Origin: Promethearchaeota archaeon
GTDB lineage: Archaea > Asgardarchaeota > Lokiarchaeia > Sigyniarchaeales > SOKP01
Length of the DNA stretch: 11,182 nt
Direction: 5' to 3'
NCBI GenBank assembly: GCA_048941265.1
Contig: JBHLNT010000135.1
Span: forward strand, 1 to 11,182
A program made the position numbers and the translations under genes. Below the pieces are notes generated by a model, which made no database searches, was not told the DNA's origin, and saw only the letters and a list, made by a program, of their open reading frames with translations. Below, one piece after another: positions 497 through 9,392 of this stretch. Each line of letters starts with the position of its first letter. The stretch's first letter is position 1.

Positions 497-1513
<1,017 letters not shown>

Positions 1514-1837: not shown

Positions 1838-3241
1838 ATGAAATATATAGAAGAGCAATCAAGAAAAACCCCTGTTATGGCGGAAGCTGATGTTTTAGTA
1901 ATTGGAGGAGGGCCAGCAGGGCTTTCTGCTGCGTTAGCGGCAGCCAGAGAGGGAGCGAATACAATACTTGTAGAACGATATGGTTTTTTTGGAGGAATGA
2001 TAACACAGGTAATGATGGGAACTATCGCATGGTATCGTTATGCAAAAACGATCGATGCCGGGGGGATTGAAAGAGAATTTGAACTAAGAGCTAAAGAAAT
2101 GGGGGCAACCATAGACATAATGGGTAAAATCAAGAATCCAGAGATGGTAGAAATGCTTGAACAAGAAGGCTTGATGGTAAATGGGAAACCAACATTTGAG
2201 GTAATAGATACAGAGGTATTTAAATATGTGGCTGATGTGCTAATTCAGGAAGCAGGAATTACTCCCATTTTGCATTGTTTAGCTGTTGATGTGGTCATGG
2301 AGGGGAATATAGTCAAGGGGATTATTACTGAGAGCAAATCCGGCAGACAAGCAATTTTAGCTAAAAGAATAATCGATGCGACGGGGGATGCCGATATTGC
2401 ATTTTTTGCTGGGACTCCATTTCGAAAAAGTCCTAAAAATGAATTGATGGAAGTAACCACAAATTTCGGTTGCAGCGGTATTAATATTGGAAAATTTTTG
2501 ATGTATATCTATTTAAATCGTGGTAGTATAGGAGACTGGGGTGAAACATCAGGAAAGGAAGAAGATGCGTTCAGTACATATCTGGTAGAACCTTTTAACA
2601 AAGCAATATTACCCAATAAATTTCCTAAGGATATTAGAATAGAAAGCTTTTGGAGTACCTATACAGATGCGGGAGAAATCACATCCCTTAATACAGTTCA
2701 TATGACCGATATTGATTGTACAGATGTTAGGGATCTTACCAAAGCAGAGATTGAGGGGAGAAAATGGGTGATGTGGGCCATTGACGCTTTAAAAAAGCAT
2801 ACTCCAGGATTTAAAAAAGCGAGGCTAAGAAACATTGGATCATCATTAGGTACCAGAGAATCAAGAAAAATAATAGGAGAATACAATATTACAGAATATG
2901 ATGTGAGAAATGAGGCCCGTTTTGAGGACTCTATCGGTATTTGTCCGGAATTTATTGATGGTTATGACATTGCTATTTTACCTACAACGGGCCGATATTT
3001 CCAAGTTCCTTACGGTATTATTCTACCACAGAAAGTGGAAAATCTTTTAGTGGCTGGCCGCTGTGTTGGCGGAGATAAAATTTCGCATGCAGCCACACGT
3101 CAAATGGTGTGTTGTATTGTTACGGGTCAAGGTGCGGGAGTAGCTGCTGCTTTATCTCTTAAGGACAATGTAACTTGTAGGCAGGTTGATATCTCAAAAA
3201 TTCAGAAGGCCCTCAAAAAACAGGGTGTTAGAATTGAATAA
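1838..3241 (+). CDS. FAD-dependent oxidoreductase (FAD_oxidored/PF12831-like), substrate unknown
   Basis: N-terminal Rossmann DVLVIGGGPAGLSAALAAAREG...LVERYG; IIDATGDADIA; LTKAEIEGR; GTRESRKIIG; VPYG...ENLLVAGRC...GQGAGVAAA. Confidence 0.93.
   Translation: MKYIEEQSRKTPVMAEADVLVIGGGPAGLSAALAAAREGANTILVERYGFFGGMITQVMMGTIAWYRYAKTIDAGGIEREFELRAKEMGATIDIMGKIKNPEMVEMLEQEGLMVNGKPTFEVIDTEVFKYVADVLIQEAGITPILHCLAVDVVMEGNIVKGIITESKSGRQAILAKRIIDATGDADIAFFAGTPFRKSPKNELMEVTTNFGCSGINIGKFLMYIYLNRGSIGDWGETSGKEEDAFSTYLVEPFNKAILPNKFPKDIRIESFWSTYTDAGEITSLNTVHMTDIDCTDVRDLTKAEIEGRKWVMWAIDALKKHTPGFKKARLRNIGSSLGTRESRKIIGEYNITEYDVRNEARFEDSIGICPEFIDGYDIAILPTTGRYFQVPYGIILPQKVENLLVAGRCVGGDKISHAATRQMVCCIVTGQGAGVAAALSLKDNVTCRQVDISKIQKALKKQGVRIE
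2997..3241 (+). repeat. Direct repeat A, copy 1 (3' end of the FAD oxidoreductase); partner at 4860-5104
   Basis: Ungapped 245-bp alignment at offset 1863, about 38 mismatches by hand count (about 84% identity). Confidence 0.95.
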
Positions 3242-3293
3242 AGATTTATGGTAAATAAAGTCTCATGGATATAATTTTTGAAGAATTTCTTTA

Positions 3294-3308
3294 CAAAGTT
3301 TTTATATA
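3294..3308 (+). promoter_or_regulatory. Candidate archaeal BRE/TATA promoter for the membrane-RING gene
   Basis: CAAAGTT followed by TTTATATA about 130 bp upstream of ATG 3436. An SD-like AGGTGAT lies at 3412-3418. Confidence 0.35.
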
Positions 3309-3435
3309 GCCAGAGGATTATTATTACTCAAGAAAATAAATCTAAAGTAATATAAAGAAATCCTTGTGTAGTGATAAATACTGCATTTTTTTGAGTTTAA
3401 GAAGAATTAATAGGTGATTTAAAATCGCAGAGGTT

Positions 3436-4602
3436 ATGATTTGGGATCCAATAGAGCGACTTTTATGGGGAATAGCGATAGCTTTACTTTTATTCGGGGG
3501 AATTATATATATTGTTAAAGGGAGAAAGAGAGAAAATTCTCAAGAAAGGTTAATTATGTATGGTTTTGCTAGTTTTTTAATAGGATATGCGTTTGATAGG
3601 ATTTTTAGATATTTAAGTGAGTTTTTTATAAGTGGCACATTTAAGGATTTTACATTTTATGGCGATTACAGCAATCCACCTGTTATTTTTGAGATATTGC
3701 GTAGATGTGCATATATTTCATTGCTTTTAGGATTTAGTATTTTCTTGATGTCTTTTGAAAGAATAATAAAGCATACTAGATATATTATTACATTAATTAG
3801 TCTTGTTTCGATACCACTATTTATATTACTACCATTTGAAGACATCCAGTTAGTGTTTTTGATATATTTAGCCTTCGGCATTTCTATGTTTCTTATTATT
3901 CTTTTATTATTTACGAAATGGTCTGAAAGAGAATTTAAGGCAGTTTCAGCATTAATCCTTCTTGGGTTTGTTATCAGTGATGCTGCTTATTTTTTATCGG
4001 TATTTCAAGTAAAAACACTTAATTTAATTCCTTTAATAATACCTCCTATTCTATCCATTATAGGAATAGCTTTTATGATTTCTCCAATGATATTAAATCC
4101 GGATTTTTTTTCAAAAAACAGGAAATATTGGACGTTTATTATCAGTATTTCGATAATAGTTAATATAATTATGGCTTTTATTATGATTTTAATACCTCTT
4201 TTTAGATTAATGTCTATAGCATTTTTTTTTATTATATATTTAAATTTGAGAATTCTAAAATTAATGACTTTTGAAACCGAAAAGGAAAGAGAAAAAGAGC
4301 ATCCTGATATTTTAGCGGCACTTACAAAACCTCAAAAAGTCACTGAAGAAGAAGTAACGGTTTCGAAAGAAAAAAAAATTTGCTTAGTGTGTAAAGGAAA
4401 GGTTATCCGGTTTAACAGTTATATTTGTGTATGTGATGCTTTATATTGTGAAAAATGTGCTCTAGCATTGATAAAGATAGACAACGCATGTTGGGCGTGT
4501 AATGCTCCGATTGATGAGTCAAAACCTGTGAGATTGACGGATAAGAGGAATAAAGAAATAATAATTGAGAGTGCGGATCATAAGGAAACTAAAAAAAAAT
4601 AA
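3436..4602 (+). CDS. Multipass membrane protein (about 9 TM) with C-terminal C4C4 RING-like zinc finger
   Basis: About 9 hydrophobic segments in residues ~8-277, then a charged linker (KPQKVTEEEVTVSKEKKI), then C-x2-C-x11-C-x-C-x4-C-x2-C-x10-C-x2-C. Confidence 0.88.
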   Translation: MIWDPIERLLWGIAIALLLFGGIIYIVKGRKRENSQERLIMYGFASFLIGYAFDRIFRYLSEFFISGTFKDFTFYGDYSNPPVIFEILRRCAYISLLLGFSIFLMSFERIIKHTRYIITLISLVSIPLFILLPFEDIQLVFLIYLAFGISMFLIILLLFTKWSEREFKAVSALILLGFVISDAAYFLSVFQVKTLNLIPLIIPPILSIIGIAFMISPMILNPDFFSKNRKYWTFIISISIIVNIIMAFIMILIPLFRLMSIAFFFIIYLNLRILKLMTFETEKEREKEHPDILAALTKPQKVTEEEVTVSKEKKICLVCKGKVIRFNSYICVCDALYCEKCALALIKIDNACWACNAPIDESKPVRLTDKRNKEIIIESADHKETKKK

Positions 4603-4619
4603 ATCTCTTTTTGAGAGAT
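4603..4619 (+). terminator. Small hairpin directly after the stop codon
   Basis: ATCTCT-TTTTG-AGAGAT followed by GTTATTTT. Confidence 0.3.
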
Positions 4620-4647
4620 GTTATTTTCATAAAAATATTACTAAGTG

Positions 4648-4782
4648 AAAAACAATGAATTAGAGCTCACTTTTGAGTCAAAAGGAAAATTTACGGCGGT
4701 TTATAGTCGGATTGTGGCAGAAAAAATTCTTTATCAATTCGAAAATCCAGACGAATAAACTCAAAAAAATATATATTTTTAA
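4648..4782 (+). pseudogene. Orphan 3' fragment of a paralog of the NAD(P)H reductase at 6546-7169 (repeat B, copy 1)
   Basis: Translates KNNELELTFESKGKFTAVYSRIVAEKILYQFENPDE*TQKNIYF* versus KSNVLTLTLEPKGKFKTIYRGTAAEKIIHQFENPKGYIQKNIYF* (7035-7169). Ungapped, 26/44 aa and about 99/135 nt identical, with a premature TAA at 4756. Not in the ORF track. Confidence 0.92.
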
Positions 4783-4859
4783 AAAATTGAGAATAAAATG
4801 AAATTTGTTATTAAAAAAAATAAGTGAAAAATCTAATTTTTTTTTGATTTGTAGCTTGA

Positions 4860-5104
4860 ATTTCCAAGTTCCTTACGGTATTATTGTACCAAAGAAAGTG
4901 GAAAATCTTTTAGTGGCAGGTCGCTGTGTTGCCGGAGATAAAATATATCATGCCGCAACCCGTCAAATGGCATGCTGTACAGTTACAGGTCAAGGTGCTG
5001 GGGTGGCTGCTACCGTGTCTCTTCAGGACGCCGAAGTATGCAGGCGGGTTGATATCTCGAAAGTCCAGAAGGTCCTCAAAAAACAGGGTGTTAGAATTGA
5101 ATAA
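4860..5104 (+). pseudogene. Orphan 3' fragment (last 80 codons) of an FAD-oxidoreductase paralog (repeat A, copy 2)
   Basis: 65/80 aa identical to residues 388-467 of the 1838-3241 protein. Homology starts abruptly at 4860 and the FAD-binding N-terminus is missing. The TTG start at 4805 lies in non-homologous AT-rich DNA. Confidence 0.92.
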
Positions 5105-5146
5105 GAAGTAATCGTTGTGATCAAACAAATTAACTTAAAAATTCAA

Positions 5147-5566
5147 TCAAAAATTTTCTAAGAAGTCATCTATTTTTGTTTTATACTTGGATTTCAATTT
5201 TTCGGAAAAATCTCGCATAATTGAGAGATCTCCATCAAAGTTCTGAATAGTTTGTTTATCAAAGGAATTAGTGAATAATTGATGGATTTCTTTTAAATGT
5301 TTTTTAAGATGTTTCTTTTTCGAATCTTGGCTAACTAAAGCAATAACAACATTATATTCTTCATCAATTAAAAATGAAACATATTTGTCCTTTAATGTAA
5401 GGTCTTGAATCCCTGAACCAAATGATTTCTGAGCAAAATCCATAATTGCTGAGATGAAACTTCCAAATAGTAAATTACTTTCTTTTTCTTCAAAATAATT
5501 TATATCTATCTGAAGTAATACTTCTCCACTTCTCCTCAAGATAAAAAGCTCTTCCCCTATATTCAT
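5147..5566 (-). CDS. Stand-alone longin-like domain protein (Asgard type)
   Basis: 139 aa with a beta-beta-alpha-beta-beta-beta-alpha-alpha pattern: ELFILRRSGEVLL, LLFGSFISAIMDFAQK, IQDLTL/YVSF/VVIALVS strands, LKEIHQLF, NFDGDLSIMRDF. Assignment is by pattern recognition, not a search. Confidence 0.75.
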   Translation of the reverse strand: MNIGEELFILRRSGEVLLQIDINYFEEKESNLLFGSFISAIMDFAQKSFGSGIQDLTLKDKYVSFLIDEEYNVVIALVSQDSKKKHLKKHLKEIHQLFTNSFDKQTIQNFDGDLSIMRDFSEKLKSKYKTKIDDFLENF

Positions 5567-6288
5567 ATATTATCTTCATCTCTCATTTTAATCTTCATTG
5601 TAAATCCTCTCATCATAAATAATCCTCCAATCATTATGATAATTCGCGCAATTAATATTCCTATATTACTTGGAAATCGAGCACCATCCAATATTGTCCC
5701 GATTGTAAATAATAATAGTCCTATTTCTATAATCTGAACCTTTTTGTAGGCGAAAGTAGTTTTTGAAAGACCTTTTCTTAGATAATTGAAAAATATAGAA
5801 TTTGGAAGTGCTAGGTAAAAAAGCAATAAAATTAGGAAGTATATATATACCAATGAATTTACAATGCGTAGATCCGAAACATCCATAAAAATAGTTATTT
5901 CAACTTCAAAACCTAAGAAGAGGATTGTAGCCATAACGATGTAAGTGACAATAATTAATAAATATAAGAGGATTAATAAACTTTTATTGCTGATTTCAGC
6001 GAGTTTTAGACTAGCTAAATCTAAAAAAATTAAGGACAAAGATGCAAATAAATAAGCCGCCCTCCAATAGGGTAAAAGAACTGTTATATTACGCTCGTAT
6101 TGAGATATTAATATAACTCTTAATCCCCAGACTAAATAAGTTATTGTTGTTGCAAAAAATGATATAGAAAAAAATAAGGAACTTATATTTTTAGACTGGA
6201 TATACGACTTTAATGTAATAATGAAATATATCCCAAAAACAAACACTATTGAAAATGTTCCAACTAATCCATATATAGATACTGCCAT
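5563..6288 (-). CDS. 7-transmembrane protein (putative sensor/receptor, no fused output domain)
   Basis: Seven hydrophobic segments fill all 241 aa. Its stop overlaps the longin-like start codon (ATGA, 5566-5563). Confidence 0.82.
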   Translation of the reverse strand: MAVSIYGLVGTFSIVFVFGIYFIITLKSYIQSKNISSLFFSISFFATTITYLVWGLRVILISQYERNITVLLPYWRAAYLFASLSLIFLDLASLKLAEISNKSLLILLYLLIIVTYIVMATILFLGFEVEITIFMDVSDLRIVNSLVYIYFLILLLFYLALPNSIFFNYLRKGLSKTTFAYKKVQIIEIGLLLFTIGTILDGARFPSNIGILIARIIIMIGGLFMMRGFTMKIKMRDEDNI

Positions 6289-6403
6289 TTTAATTCTTTC
6301 TTTAATTGATTTATAATTTATGTGATTGAAATCATAACTTCTTTATTTGTAATAACTTATTTTGTATTAATATTTTTCCAATATATTTTTATACTATCAG
6401 TAG

Positions 6404-6469
6404 AAACAACTTGATTATACAGAAAAAATTGGGGTCGGTTCAACTGAATATCAATTGATTGAGGTTTAA
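6404..6469 (+). pseudogene. Probable orphan 3' tip of a DUF362-family Fe-S protein gene
   Basis: Translates KQLDYTEKIGVGSTEYQLIEV*, resembling the QLxYAExIGLGSxxYELIxx* terminus I recall for DUF362 proteins. Preceded by an in-frame TAG, with no start codon. Confidence 0.5.
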
Positions 6470-6531
6470 GACATAAAAAGGTTTTGAGAAAAAAATAAAA
6501 ATACAAAAAAATAATACAATGTAGAAAAAAG

Positions 6532-6539
6532 AAGGAGGT
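6532..6539 (+). promoter_or_regulatory. Shine-Dalgarno site
   Basis: AAGGAGGT ending 6 nt before ATG 6546. Confidence 0.75.
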
Positions 6540-6545
6540 AAAAGT

Positions 6546-7169
6546 ATGAAAATTGCAGTATTCGGCGCTACGGGAGGATTGGGACAACAATTCCTCGATA
6601 AGGCGTTAGGGAAAGGTCATGAGATCGTTGCGTATGTGAGAACTCCGGAAAAGATCCAATATAAACATGGCAATCTTACGGTCATTAAGGGGGATGTCTT
6701 TGATAAGCAAAAAATTATTGAATCCCTTAAAGATGTAGATGCGACCTTCATTGCTTGGAGGATGAGGACTCAGCGAATTCCTCTATTCTCAGAGGGAACT
6801 CAGAATGTAGTGGATGCAATGAAACAAAACGGGGTAAAGAGAATTATTGTAATGTCTGAATATGCTTATGATGAGCATGCTAATAACTTCAGTATTTTTA
6901 CAAGAGGGCTGATCAGGCTCTATGGTAAATTTCAGAAGTTTCAATTGAATGAGCGAAGACAACAGGACGAAATAATTTATAATAGTGGTCTAGAATGGAC
7001 TATTAACAGGATCAGGGCTCTTAACGATGATGAAAAAAGTAATGTACTAACACTTACCCTTGAGCCTAAAGGAAAGTTTAAAACAATTTATCGTGGCACA
7101 GCAGCAGAAAAGATTATTCACCAATTCGAGAATCCAAAAGGATATATTCAAAAAAATATTTATTTTTAA
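6546..7169 (+). CDS. NAD(P)H-binding oxidoreductase (atypical SDR, NAD_binding_10/flavin reductase BLVRB-like)
   Basis: MKIAVFGATGGLG Rossmann motif, AYVRTPEK, GDVFD, GTQNVVDAMKQNGVKRII, SGLEWTINR; strong SD. Confidence 0.92.
   Translation: MKIAVFGATGGLGQQFLDKALGKGHEIVAYVRTPEKIQYKHGNLTVIKGDVFDKQKIIESLKDVDATFIAWRMRTQRIPLFSEGTQNVVDAMKQNGVKRIIVMSEYAYDEHANNFSIFTRGLIRLYGKFQKFQLNERRQQDEIIYNSGLEWTINRIRALNDDEKSNVLTLTLEPKGKFKTIYRGTAAEKIIHQFENPKGYIQKNIYF
7035..7169 (+). repeat. Direct repeat B, copy 2 (3' end of the intact NAD(P)H reductase); partner at 4648-4782
   Basis: Ungapped 135-bp alignment at offset 2387, about 73% identity by hand count. Confidence 0.9.
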
Positions 7170-7237
7170 AAAGATAGAAATGAATCAACACTTTTTTTTG
7201 ATAATTTTTAATTGAAACAAGGGATGTAATTCTAAAA

Positions 7238-8185
7238 ATGGACTTTTTTACTCATTTAGTTTTTGGAGCACTTATCTATTTACTTTTCTTGAATGAGATT
7301 CCTGCTGATTATTTAATATTAGCGATATTTTTCTCAATGCTACCCGATTTAGATATATTTCTAAGGCCTTTTAAAAGATTTACTAAATCAAATTATATTG
7401 AACATCGCGGAGGGTCTCATTCATATATTGTAGGGATAATAATATCATTTATTGTAAGTGTTATATATTATCTTTTTACAGGTCAATCCATTCTTATCGT
7501 TTGGATTATTGGTATGACGTTTTATGGATTGCATGTCTCTATGGATCTTCTTACCACTACAAAAATTCCTTTCTTATATCCGCTTTCTAAAAAAGAAAAC
7601 AGTTTTAATATCGAAAAAGCAGGCAGTTTATTTACCTTACTCAATTCGGCACTATTTCTTTTGATAATTATCCCGCTGTATATCTATTCTGTAGGTACAT
7701 ATGTTTTATGGTTGTTCATTAACGGCTTTACTTCTTTTTTCATTCTTTATTATGTATATCGAATTTTTTCAAAACTCTGGTTTTCTAAAGATCTAAAAGA
7801 GAGTCAGAAATTCCTGCCAGGAATTTTGCCCTTTTATTTCGCAATATTTAACTATGAAATCAATGGAAATAAAGTATCATCTAGTTTAGAAATGAGATCT
7901 CATTTCTCAAAAAGAAAGGAGATAATTAATACCAATATTATCTTAAATACCGAAGAACTGATCCTTTATGAAAAGGGGTTAGAGCTATGTAGGTCAAACT
8001 ATTATTTTGCAAAATGGACTATATTTCCAATCTTTATTAGGAATGGAGAAATTTTTACTATTAAGTTCTTTTTCTTAGAAACGATGATGCGTAAAAGAAC
8101 TATGTATATTCAATTTGCTTTTGACAAAATACATCACTATTTAATTGGTTATAGTCAAGGTTCGGGACGTATCCAATCTCAATAA
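7238..8185 (+). CDS. Membrane-bound metal-dependent hydrolase (YdjM family) with C-terminal extension
   Basis: MDFFTH, LPDLD, HRGGSHS, LHVSMDLLT and PFLYP motifs, with multiple TM segments. Confidence 0.9.
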   Translation: MDFFTHLVFGALIYLLFLNEIPADYLILAIFFSMLPDLDIFLRPFKRFTKSNYIEHRGGSHSYIVGIIISFIVSVIYYLFTGQSILIVWIIGMTFYGLHVSMDLLTTTKIPFLYPLSKKENSFNIEKAGSLFTLLNSALFLLIIIPLYIYSVGTYVLWLFINGFTSFFILYYVYRIFSKLWFSKDLKESQKFLPGILPFYFAIFNYEINGNKVSSSLEMRSHFSKRKEIINTNIILNTEELILYEKGLELCRSNYYFAKWTIFPIFIRNGEIFTIKFFFLETMMRKRTMYIQFAFDKIHHYLIGYSQGSGRIQSQ

Positions 8186-8213
8186 TTTATATAAAAAGAA
8201 TAAAAAAAACAGG

Positions 8214-9392
8214 TTAATTTTCTCTTGATTTATATCGAATTTTAACCATTAAGTCCCTAAGTTCTAATTTATCACTGCTGGGTTTAATATACTTCTTTTT
8301 CACTCCCTCTTCAAGTGGAAAAGTAGTAATATCGGTCCCTTGGAGGGAGACCATTTTTCCGAATTTTCCTTCTAGCACCAGTTTCATGGCAGCTAAGCCA
8401 AATCTCAGCCCTAATATTCTATCATAAGAATTGGGAGTTCCGGCTCTCATAGTATGACCAAGAACTACACTACGGCATTCAAAATCCGTGCCGTTTTTCT
8501 TAAATACTTCTTTCAAATCATCTCTTAGATTTAATTCTTTTACTAATATGTTTGAAATATTTAATGCGGGTAAGACAGGATTTCCAAAGACATCTTTTGG
8601 TAATTTATCAATGGTTTCTTGGGAAATTGTCTTAAAATCTCTCTTAAGTGATTCCGAATCGGGATATGCTCCTTCAGAGCATGCGATCATATGATATTTA
8701 TGTCCAGCTTCTGCTCTCTTTTTAAGGACCTCTACTACATCTTTCTCAAAATCGAATGGCGTTTCAGGAATGAGAATGATATCTGCTCCCGAAGAAATTC
8801 CGCTGTACATGGTTAAAAAACCGGCATCTCGACCCATAATTTCAACAACAAATACTCTTTGGTGAGATCTTGCAGTGGTTGTAAGATTATCCATGGCATT
8901 TGATGCAAGTTGAACGGCACTCCAGAATCCAAAAGTGTAATGAGTTCCCGCTAAATCATTGTCAATCGTCTTTGGACAACCAACAACTTTAGCATTAGTA
9001 TATTTATAGAGAGCATCCGCAACCCCTAGGGTATCATCTCCCCCTATTGCGATTAGAGCATCGATTCCTAACTCATTAAACTTGCTAGCCATTTCCTTCG
9101 AAATTTTTTGTTTAAGAGATTCTTTTTCTTCTTCTGTTTTTGCTTTTTCGATTGATTTAAAGGGATTTGTCCTGCTAGTATATAATAGCGTTCCACCAAT
9201 TGTATGAAGATCGTCATGTTCTGCAATATTAAGGGGGATAGTTAAATTTTCTAAAAATCCCTTCCATCCTTTCTCTATTCCTACACATTCAACACCAGCG
9301 TCGAAAGCTTTTAACATAATACCATACAGTACACTATTAAGTCCGGGGCAATCGCCTCCGCCAGTAAGGATTCCAACTTTTTTAATAGTCAT
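8214..9392 (-). CDS. pfkA: 6-phosphofructokinase (PfkA family), predicted pyrophosphate-dependent
   Basis: ILTGGGDCPGLN, GGTLLYTSRTNP, IGGDDT, PKTIDND, VEIMGRDAG, ILIPE, SEG, LGHTMRAG motifs. Confidence 0.96.
   Translation of the reverse strand: MTIKKVGILTGGGDCPGLNSVLYGIMLKAFDAGVECVGIEKGWKGFLENLTIPLNIAEHDDLHTIGGTLLYTSRTNPFKSIEKAKTEEEKESLKQKISKEMASKFNELGIDALIAIGGDDTLGVADALYKYTNAKVVGCPKTIDNDLAGTHYTFGFWSAVQLASNAMDNLTTTARSHQRVFVVEIMGRDAGFLTMYSGISSGADIILIPETPFDFEKDVVEVLKKRAEAGHKYHMIACSEGAYPDSESLKRDFKTISQETIDKLPKDVFGNPVLPALNISNILVKELNLRDDLKEVFKKNGTDFECRSVVLGHTMRAGTPNSYDRILGLRFGLAAMKLVLEGKFGKMVSLQGTDITTFPLEEGVKKKYIKPSSDKLELRDLMVKIRYKSREN

Follow-up and report, generated by a model that had tools for sequence, protein, structure and literature searches.

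The A/PFK gap and its two units

In this study, I analyzed a stretch of 11,182 nucleotides (nt) from the chromosome of a Promethearchaeota archaeon, an Asgard of the Lokiarchaeia type (contig JBHLNT010000135.1 of assembly GCA_048941265.1), hereafter called the window. The genome has a G+C content of about 32%. It was found that two diverged versions of one variable gap, lying between two convergent housekeeping genes, an FAD-dependent oxidoreductase gene (gene A) and a PFK gene, stand head to tail with one non-homologous joint between them. Genes were called and a Pfam scan was performed over 13 open reading frames (ORFs). Besides intact A, PFK and an NAD(P)H-binding reductase gene (gene B), there are orphan remnants called A′, B′ and PFK′; the 3′ end of intact A (its last 81 codons) is called A3′. 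One scan with protein A gave 25 related loci (numbered from L001), all on Asgard (Promethearchaeota-type) contigs of metagenome-assembled genomes (MAGs), at 67–83% amino acid (aa) identity. The features are as follows.

1–474: flavodoxin gene
530–1513: aldo/keto reductase (AKR) gene
1838–3241, plus strand: gene A, FAD-dependent oxidoreductase, 467 aa, intact, the left conserved flank (PF12831 FAD_oxidored, E=7.8e-96)
2997–3252, plus strand: A 3′ anchor, at which unit 1 starts; it comprises the 81 terminal codons of A and 11 further nt (direct repeat D1)
3436–4602, plus strand: cargo 1, a polytopic membrane protein of 388 aa with a C-terminal eight-cysteine zinc-finger (RING-like) domain, TM-Cys8 (no Pfam match)
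4648–4790, plus strand: B′, orphan remnant of a gene for an NAD(P)-binding reductase (its last 44 codons), interrupted by an in-frame TAA (repeat D2)
4797–4831, plus strand: spacer remnant, from just outside the PFK stop codon (alignment with window 8186–8213 and the spacers of L001, L002 and L003)
4832–4863, minus strand: PFK′ stub, the stop codon and about nine terminal PFK codons with a 2-nt indel, holding a T9 tract (4837–4845)
4860–5104, plus strand: A′, orphan, the 81 terminal codons of a diverged A gene, frame open, start of unit 2 (PF12831 positions 335–416, E=6.6e-23)
5147–5566, minus strand: cargo 2a, a protein of 139 aa with a longin domain (4 nt of overlap between its start and the stop of the 7TM gene)
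5563–6288, minus strand: cargo 2b, seven-transmembrane (7TM) protein, 241 aa, with a HisKA_7TM-like predicted fold (no Pfam match)
6546–7169, plus strand: gene B, NAD(P)H-binding reductase, 207 aa, intact, content of unit 2 (PF13460, E=1.9e-35)
7238–8185, plus strand: YdjM-family membrane protein, unit 2 only (PF04307, E=8.7e-23)
8186–8213: spacer
8214–9392, minus strand: PFK, intact, the right conserved flank (PF00365, E=2.5e-88)
beyond PFK: ZPR1, then the pyruvate:ferredoxin oxidoreductase gamma subunit (POR-gamma)

Unit 1 (2997–4863) consists of A3′, the TM-Cys8 gene, B′, the spacer remnant and the PFK′ stub. Unit 2 (4860 to about 8245) consists of A′, the longin/7TM operon, B, the YdjM gene, the spacer and the 3′ end of PFK. 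Both units begin at A codon 387 and end with the terminal part of PFK, stop codon included. The order A, TM/Cys8, B′, A′, the minus-strand longin and 7TM pair, and B had been read in an initial annotation of the same DNA and is as described there. A 6-bp hairpin can be read from the sequence at 4603–4619, immediately 3′ of the TM-Cys8 stop codon.

The two units are connected by three collinear anchor pairs. A3′ (2997–3241) and A′ (4860–5104) are aligned by blastn without gaps over 245 nt at 84.5% identity (207/245 identical, E=1.9e-74) and share exact blocks of 26, 25 and 31 nt; the slightly longer pair 2997–3252 and 4860–5115 is 83% identical. The B′/B pair is also ungapped, with 70% identity for 4648–4817 versus 7035–7204, 73.3% over the 135 nt of the coding overlap, and 77% in the core (4673–4785 versus 7060–7172; blastn E=4.5e-19). 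Thus, the earlier description of diverged anchors (about 84% and 73%) free of indels was accurate. The translation of B′ is KNNELELTFESKGKF...PDE-stop-TQKNIYF-stop, with conserved codons continuing past the in-frame stop.

The third anchor is 4797–4863, which is homologous to the spacer and the last nine or so codons of PFK. It aligns with the window's own copy at 8186–8245 and with the copies in three relatives. When the Smith-Waterman local alignment with each of four reference copies (window 8150–8250, L001, L002 and L003) was compared with 1000 dinucleotide shuffles, none of the 1000 was as good. The stub matches L003 11474–11569 in blastn (E=4e-6), and 4812–4856 was the top nhmmer match across the window. 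On the minus strand, the stub ends in ...YKSKKN-stop and PFK ends in ...YKSREN-stop. The stub spacer carries AATAAGT, as do the spacers of L001 and L003, while the window's own spacer differs. An ORF of 99 aa with a TTG start (4805–5104) begins in the spacer remnant, crosses the PFK′ stub and continues in A′; gene-calling software would list it as a chimeric "FAD oxidoreductase" fragment.

The initial annotation had ended both units with B followed by equivalent T tracts. The T9 tract at 4837–4845 and the T8 tract at 7192–7199 do exist, the former separated from A′ by 14 bases (4846–4859). However, the T9 tract and these 14 bases belong to the third anchor. T9, lying inside the PFK′ stub, therefore does not correspond to the T8 that follows B. 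These are two of the eight T-runs of at least seven in the window, and the T-runs are ordinary oligo-T terminator-like tracts. Direct alignment of the junction with the sequence after B (7178–7260) was equaled by 126 of 1000 shuffles, and the equivalence was rejected. At the joint (GAATTT/CC), the PFK sequence breaks off about 30 nt into the gene and A codon 387 follows immediately, with ATTT (4860–4863) found in both the PFK and the A sequence.

The gap in related loci

Is the gap between A and PFK variable among relatives? The locus content of the 25 relatives was assessed by tblastn at 1e-5 within 10 kb, combined with blastp at E≤1 against all ORFs of at least 60 aa. In L001, L002 and L003 (3/25 loci), A is followed after 100–210 nt by PFK and then by ZPR1 and POR-gamma, on the same strands as in the window, where the gap is about 5 kb. 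None of the TM-Cys8, longin, 7TM and B proteins was found within 10 kb of A in any of the 25 loci, and no relative has a second A fragment (0/25). L001 alone keeps a YdjM remnant between A and PFK (the last 40 codons, residues 275–314). No significant relic of B or YdjM was found in the L002 and L003 spacers, the best case being L003 compared with the L001 remnant (10/500 shuffles). The genes that follow A in the remaining 22 loci vary (nitroreductase, DUF362, PFL, acyl-CoA dehydrogenase and others). In summary, the conserved frame is the convergent pair of A and PFK; B is part of what varies, and the nearest relatives have an empty slot.

The interval therefore varies among relatives, as had been anticipated, but B is neither a conserved flank nor the end of a unit. 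This bears on the earlier proposal of a dedicated slot, in which 7TM cassettes would be swapped or stacked by homologous recombination through the ends of A and B. The anchors are indeed coding-type alleles, and the content does differ between the units. On the other hand, B stands next to A in 0/25 relatives, the units end in PFK sequence, and they are connected by a non-homologous joint from the PFK′ stub to A codon 387 instead of a crossover inside the anchors. The membrane proteins are not alternative 7TM modules either; TM-Cys8 and the 241-aa 7TM protein were tried as one family and found to be unrelated (BLASTP E=9, hhalign probability 0.2%). Nothing indicates a dedicated exchange mechanism, and I regard such a slot as extremely unlikely.

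The locus resembles the flexible genomic islands, additive or replacement, which lie between conserved core genes as outlined by Lopez-Perez, Rodriguez-Valera and co-workers (PMC4033161). As in those islands, the position between conserved genes is fixed, unrelated genes occupy it from lineage to lineage, discordant divergence is taken as the sign of exchange among relatives, and clear hallmarks of mobile elements are lacking. The same flanks with differing content were found here in three relatives, the only ones with the A–PFK context, in a presence/absence comparison at genus-level distance. The differences are that both versions are present in one genome, that the joint is illegitimate, and that stubs of both flank genes lie at the joint. 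The locus thus fits the pattern of a flexible genomic island with a fixed location, seen here at an additive stage in which the two versions coexist.

Further observations were made around the slot. Between AKR and A, the window has an orphan remnant of an acyl-CoA dehydrogenase gene (ACAD′, its last 42 codons, at 1526–1654; ORF 1536–1691). This truncation is common to L001 (95% aa identity), while L002 and L003 have an intact 412-aa gene directly upstream of A. All remnants noticed are gene 3′ ends: ACAD′, B′, A′, PFK′ and the YdjM′ of L001. L001 has about 3.7 kb between ACAD′ and A (2019–5731) with no counterpart in the window, encoding a 4Fe-4S protein, a major facilitator superfamily transporter, a 196-aa ORF and a 244-aa multi-transmembrane ORF. 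Thus, the left side of A is a variable slot too. The multi-transmembrane ORF was considered as kin of the window membrane proteins, but it is unrelated to both.

Three other loci have peculiarities of their own. The L008 contig is titled Candidatus Nanopelagicaceae bacterium, while its A hardly differs from the A genes of two Promethearchaeota loci, L004 and L007 (end branches 0.004–0.013 in the tree); it was probably mis-binned in an actinobacterial MAG. In L002 (300–2842), a type II DNA methyltransferase gene (PADLOC MTase_II, E=5.8e-95) adjoins an unannotated 389-aa ORF upstream of the intact ACAD, and the two form a possible restriction-modification pair. In L003 (11545–12225), the longest ORF over PFK is 226 aa, while tblastn covers PFK residues 15–392 at 88%; this PFK may be interrupted or mis-assembled.

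Divergence of the copies and origin of the tandem

A3′ and A′ differ at 38 positions (8/9/21 by codon position), with a synonymous divergence (dS) of 0.48, a non-synonymous divergence (dN) of 0.10 and a dN/dS of 0.21. For B and B′, dS is 1.31, dN is 0.21 and dN/dS is 0.16. Thus, both orphan fragments diverged mostly as coding sequence, which agrees with the initial annotation. The changes unique to A′ number 12 and are spread 4/4/4 over the codon positions (8 non-synonymous and 4 synonymous), as expected for a short phase of recent neutral drift. A tree built from 26 sequences of the terminal 240 nt of A places A′ with L002 and L003 (support 94/86) and A3′ near L001.

Based on these data, I propose that the slot version of a diverged relative was added beside the resident version through a single illegitimate joint together with pairing of homologous DNA in the flank common to both, an account to which I give an even chance. 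In the nearest relatives, plus-strand A and minus-strand PFK point toward each other across a short spacer. Next to the resident version of this region, DNA from a diverged relative with its own form of the locus would have been inserted, by homologous pairing in the shared flank on one side and by an illegitimate joint at the level of microhomology (ATTT) on the other. The route may have been homology-facilitated illegitimate recombination of a linear fragment or, alternatively, Campbell-type single-crossover insertion of a chromosomal fragment circularized at ATTT. The outcome would be one intact A and one intact PFK, with A′, B′ and PFK′ left as decaying stubs, and no dedicated mobile machinery would be involved.

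Both routes are reportedly known from bacterial transformation (de Vries and Wackernagel; Prudhomme et al.). The likeness is that homology with a diverged relative secures one end while a microhomology of a few bases joins the other, and that foreign DNA is added with partial duplication of the anchor. In the window, ATTT is present at the joint, and the tree and dN/dS suggest an origin from a donor; the microhomology, unlike in the bacterial cases, is only ATTT. Homology-facilitated illegitimate recombination is not known from archaea of this phylum.

The initial annotation had put forward an old tandem duplication as an equally possible history. In this case, an in-situ duplication would have copied the DNA between A codon 387 and the PFK 3′ end, and unit 1 would then have lost the longin/7TM genes, the 5′ part of B and the YdjM gene and gained TM-Cys8. 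The topology is matched exactly, with one novel joint from distal to proximal and three collinear anchor pairs, and the in-frame stop of B′ and the neutral-looking unique changes of A′ also fit. The substitution pattern, however, fits poorly. For a fragment dead since an in-situ duplication, I estimate a dN/dS of about 0.5, assuming an omega of about 0.07 for the intact copy as in orthologue pairs, and the observed 0.21 and 0.16 are too low for copies that were non-functional from birth. Likewise, about 40 non-synonymous differences would be estimated in A′ against about 17.5 observed. Copies of equal age are not seen either, since the proportion of synonymous differences (pS) is 0.35 for A3′/A′ and 0.62 for B/B′, about 2.4 standard errors apart on short sequences. 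In addition, the C-terminus of B′ is closer to the B proteins of 11 of 27 other lineages than to the window B (up to 32/44 versus 26/44), the unit interiors have no residual similarity, and at least three further events are required. I consider this history rather unlikely.

Several points weigh against the addition of a relative's version and need to be stated. The clade of A3′ and A′, when forced together, is not rejected (approximately unbiased test, p-AU 0.169), and the sequence nearest to A3′ by synonymous distance is A′ (0.48, the smallest of the A3′ distances, versus 0.71–0.84 to L001–L003); thus, the duplication may have occurred within the lineage. Both anchors are short (81 codons with S=58 synonymous sites for A, 44 codons with S=26 for B), and the dS of B/B′ approaches saturation. 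The AT-rich stub reaches no better than E=0.4 in nhmmer over the whole window, ATTT has four bases and is weak evidence at about 32% G+C, and the joint is known from this assembly alone. Sliding identity to L001–L003 in the right flank gave a mosaic with no clean switch that would mark a recombination tract. No donor genome with the order A, TM-Cys8, B′ and PFK was found, and neither DNA uptake nor chromosome mixing is known to have been demonstrated in this lineage.

The flanking genes show how far the region is mixed. The dS to L001 is 0.54 for flavodoxin, 0.15 for AKR, 1.85 for the 5′ part of A, 1.02 for PFK (0.55 to L002), 0.54 for ZPR1 and 1.54 for POR-gamma, and mosaicism is general in the region. 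The synonymous distances of neighboring genes to L001 thus span more than ten-fold, AKR (window 530–1513 versus L001 895–1875) being the lowest, which suggests a recent exchange of AKR, or a replacement of A, among relatives. A breakpoint in A at 2997 was sought by sliding synonymous differences; the drop near the 3′ end is also seen in the L001–L003 pairs, and it is no mark of a breakpoint.

Could the tandem be an artefact? The contig might be a chimera, by assembly or by amplification, of two co-occurring related populations joined at 4859/4860. The units are as diverged as different genera, and the source is evidently a metagenome assembly, given that the related loci are all from MAGs. Chimeras of displacement amplification join at a few shared nucleotides, and the joint here shares only 4 nt. 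In contrast, a de Bruijn assembler needs k-1 shared bases, of which the joint has none, and the exact matches of 26, 25 and 31 nt between A3′ and A′ would be expected to cause a switch inside A instead of a tandem. The left and right flanks lie in the same range of dS to L001, with no split into two organisms. Moreover, the exact TM-Cys8, 7TM and B proteins are each found on two contigs, the longest of 27,769 nt, although these contigs are perhaps not independent. A chimera is thus improbable in my judgment.

Mobile elements were also considered. No integrase or transposase domain was found in the 13 window ORFs by the Pfam scan, in agreement with the initial annotation, and the window has no tRNA gene and no Rfam family. 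The stretch 3242–7237 had no match in the phage and plasmid DNA records searched, and PADLOC reported nothing in the five cargo and neighboring window ORFs scanned. No inverted repeat brackets either unit among the 25 listed of the 56 pairs found. Accordingly, a transposon or insertion sequence, which would bring a transposase, terminal inverted repeats and a target-site duplication, is not supported.

A decayed site-specific integrative element would have entered at the 3′ end of A and supplied a surrogate A 3′ end, with A3′ and A′ as attL and attR. Elements that rebuild their target gene leave direct repeats of its 3′ end beside the intact gene. In the window, the direct repeats are a gene 3′ end with the intact gene on the left, and the exact blocks of 26, 25 and 31 nt might contain an att core; they lie inside repeats of 84% identity. 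However, no integrase or other element gene and no phage or plasmid similarity was found in these searches. The putative element would also carry chromosomal debris of the same locus (B′, the spacer and the PFK′ stub), pointing to a homologous piece of chromosome, and a second A fragment is absent from all 25 relatives. I regard such an element as very unlikely.

Tandem arrays of integrative elements, namely tRNA-targeting islands and tycheposons, are described in a preprint (10.1101/2020.12.28.424599). They resemble the window in the direct repeats of a gene 3′ end and in the cargo stacked beside an intact target, while the window differs in having no integrase, tRNA or element genes and in having the 3′ end of the opposite flank (the PFK′ stub) within the repeat unit. 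The aloposons of Heimdallarchaeia, tRNA-targeting elements with giant genes (PMC8813620), were considered as kin of the locus and set aside as unrelated and not comparable. In summary, the locus looks like ordinary genome-island dynamics and unlike an integrative element, transposon or dedicated system for exchanging cassettes.

Cargo proteins and implications

The domain labels of the initial annotation fared differently from each other, with longin verified, 7TM holding at the level of the predicted fold, and RING remaining a lead. TM-Cys8 is a member of a large Asgard-specific family of polytopic proteins of about 400 aa, with 279 homologues at E≤1e-3 among 8000 scored and a best non-self identity of 44–45%. 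The family has eight invariant C-terminal cysteines (C-x2-C-x11-C-x-C-x4-C-x2-C-x10-C-x2-C). Some members match zf-C3HC4_3 (17/46), C1_2 (21/46) or DZR (19/46) in Pfam, while the window copy matches none. The AF2 model has a pLDDT of 84, and Foldseek gave local matches to RING1B/BMI1 with a probability of 0.97–0.99 but E>0.5, none reaching E≤1e-3. The RING identity of the predicted C-terminal domain is thus a lead only. Among 5.8 billion proteins, the closest relative of TM-Cys8 is 44–45% identical, versus 83–94% for the flanking genes. For B, there are 118 homologues with a best non-self identity of 85%.

The 139-aa protein is a verified longin-domain protein. In its family, 27 of 40 members match PF19036 Fuz_longin_1 (the window copy has no Pfam match at E≤0.1), and the family profile matches MON1 in PDB (E=7e-5). 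The AF2 model (pLDDT 90) has a beta-beta-alpha-beta-beta-beta-alpha fold, for which Foldseek gave 46 matches at E≤1e-3, including the longins of Mon1-Ccz1, LAMTOR, AP and TRAPP. Thus, the fold is that of the longin platforms of eukaryotic trafficking guanine nucleotide exchange factors and adaptors (Mon1-Ccz1, Ragulator/LAMTOR, TRAPP, AP sigma/mu). In contrast to these, the Asgard protein is a stand-alone single domain encoded beside a 7TM protein, in a window with no GTPase gene.

The 241-aa protein has 12 homologues (best non-self identity 63%), and its neighbors among the predicted structures of the Atlas are HisKA_7TM families (TM 0.72–0.76 by query; PF16927 fold). A 7TM protein with a HisKA_7TM-like sensor fold is therefore a lead from predicted structure. 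A complex model of the 7TM and longin proteins scored 0.72, while the best of three controls scored 0.00. In the benchmark, 116 of 157 solved complexes and 2 of 215 mismatched pairs reached this score, counts that are rough here because own alignments were used. The model runs agree in at least 91% of contacts with a partner pLDDT of at least 76, and the C-terminal helix of the longin, residues 128–139, is placed on the cytoplasmic loops of the 7TM protein. The modeling supports, but does not show, binding of the longin protein by the 7TM protein.

What do these results mean for the Asgard archaea? No new kind of genetic system is revealed. The study flags two eukaryote-like cargo modules, a membrane protein with a Cys8/RING-like domain and a 7TM protein predicted to dock a longin. 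A narrow literature search found no description of stacked slot versions in Asgard genomes, which does not prove that none exists. It is tempting to speculate, although I think it more probably wrong than right by a wide measure, that Asgards of this group grow their membrane-signaling repertoire by "allele stacking", adding the slot versions of diverged relatives side by side instead of replacing one with another. If true, stacking would leave gene-end stubs and turn alleles of different lineages into paralogous neighbors, and here it would unite a polytopic RING-like protein with a 7TM-longin receptor pair. If the joint is real, the locus would be a clean, datable footprint of diverged DNA added to an Asgard chromosome by no mobile-element machinery, and it would bear on how the unusually large Asgard genomes gain accessory and paralogous genes.

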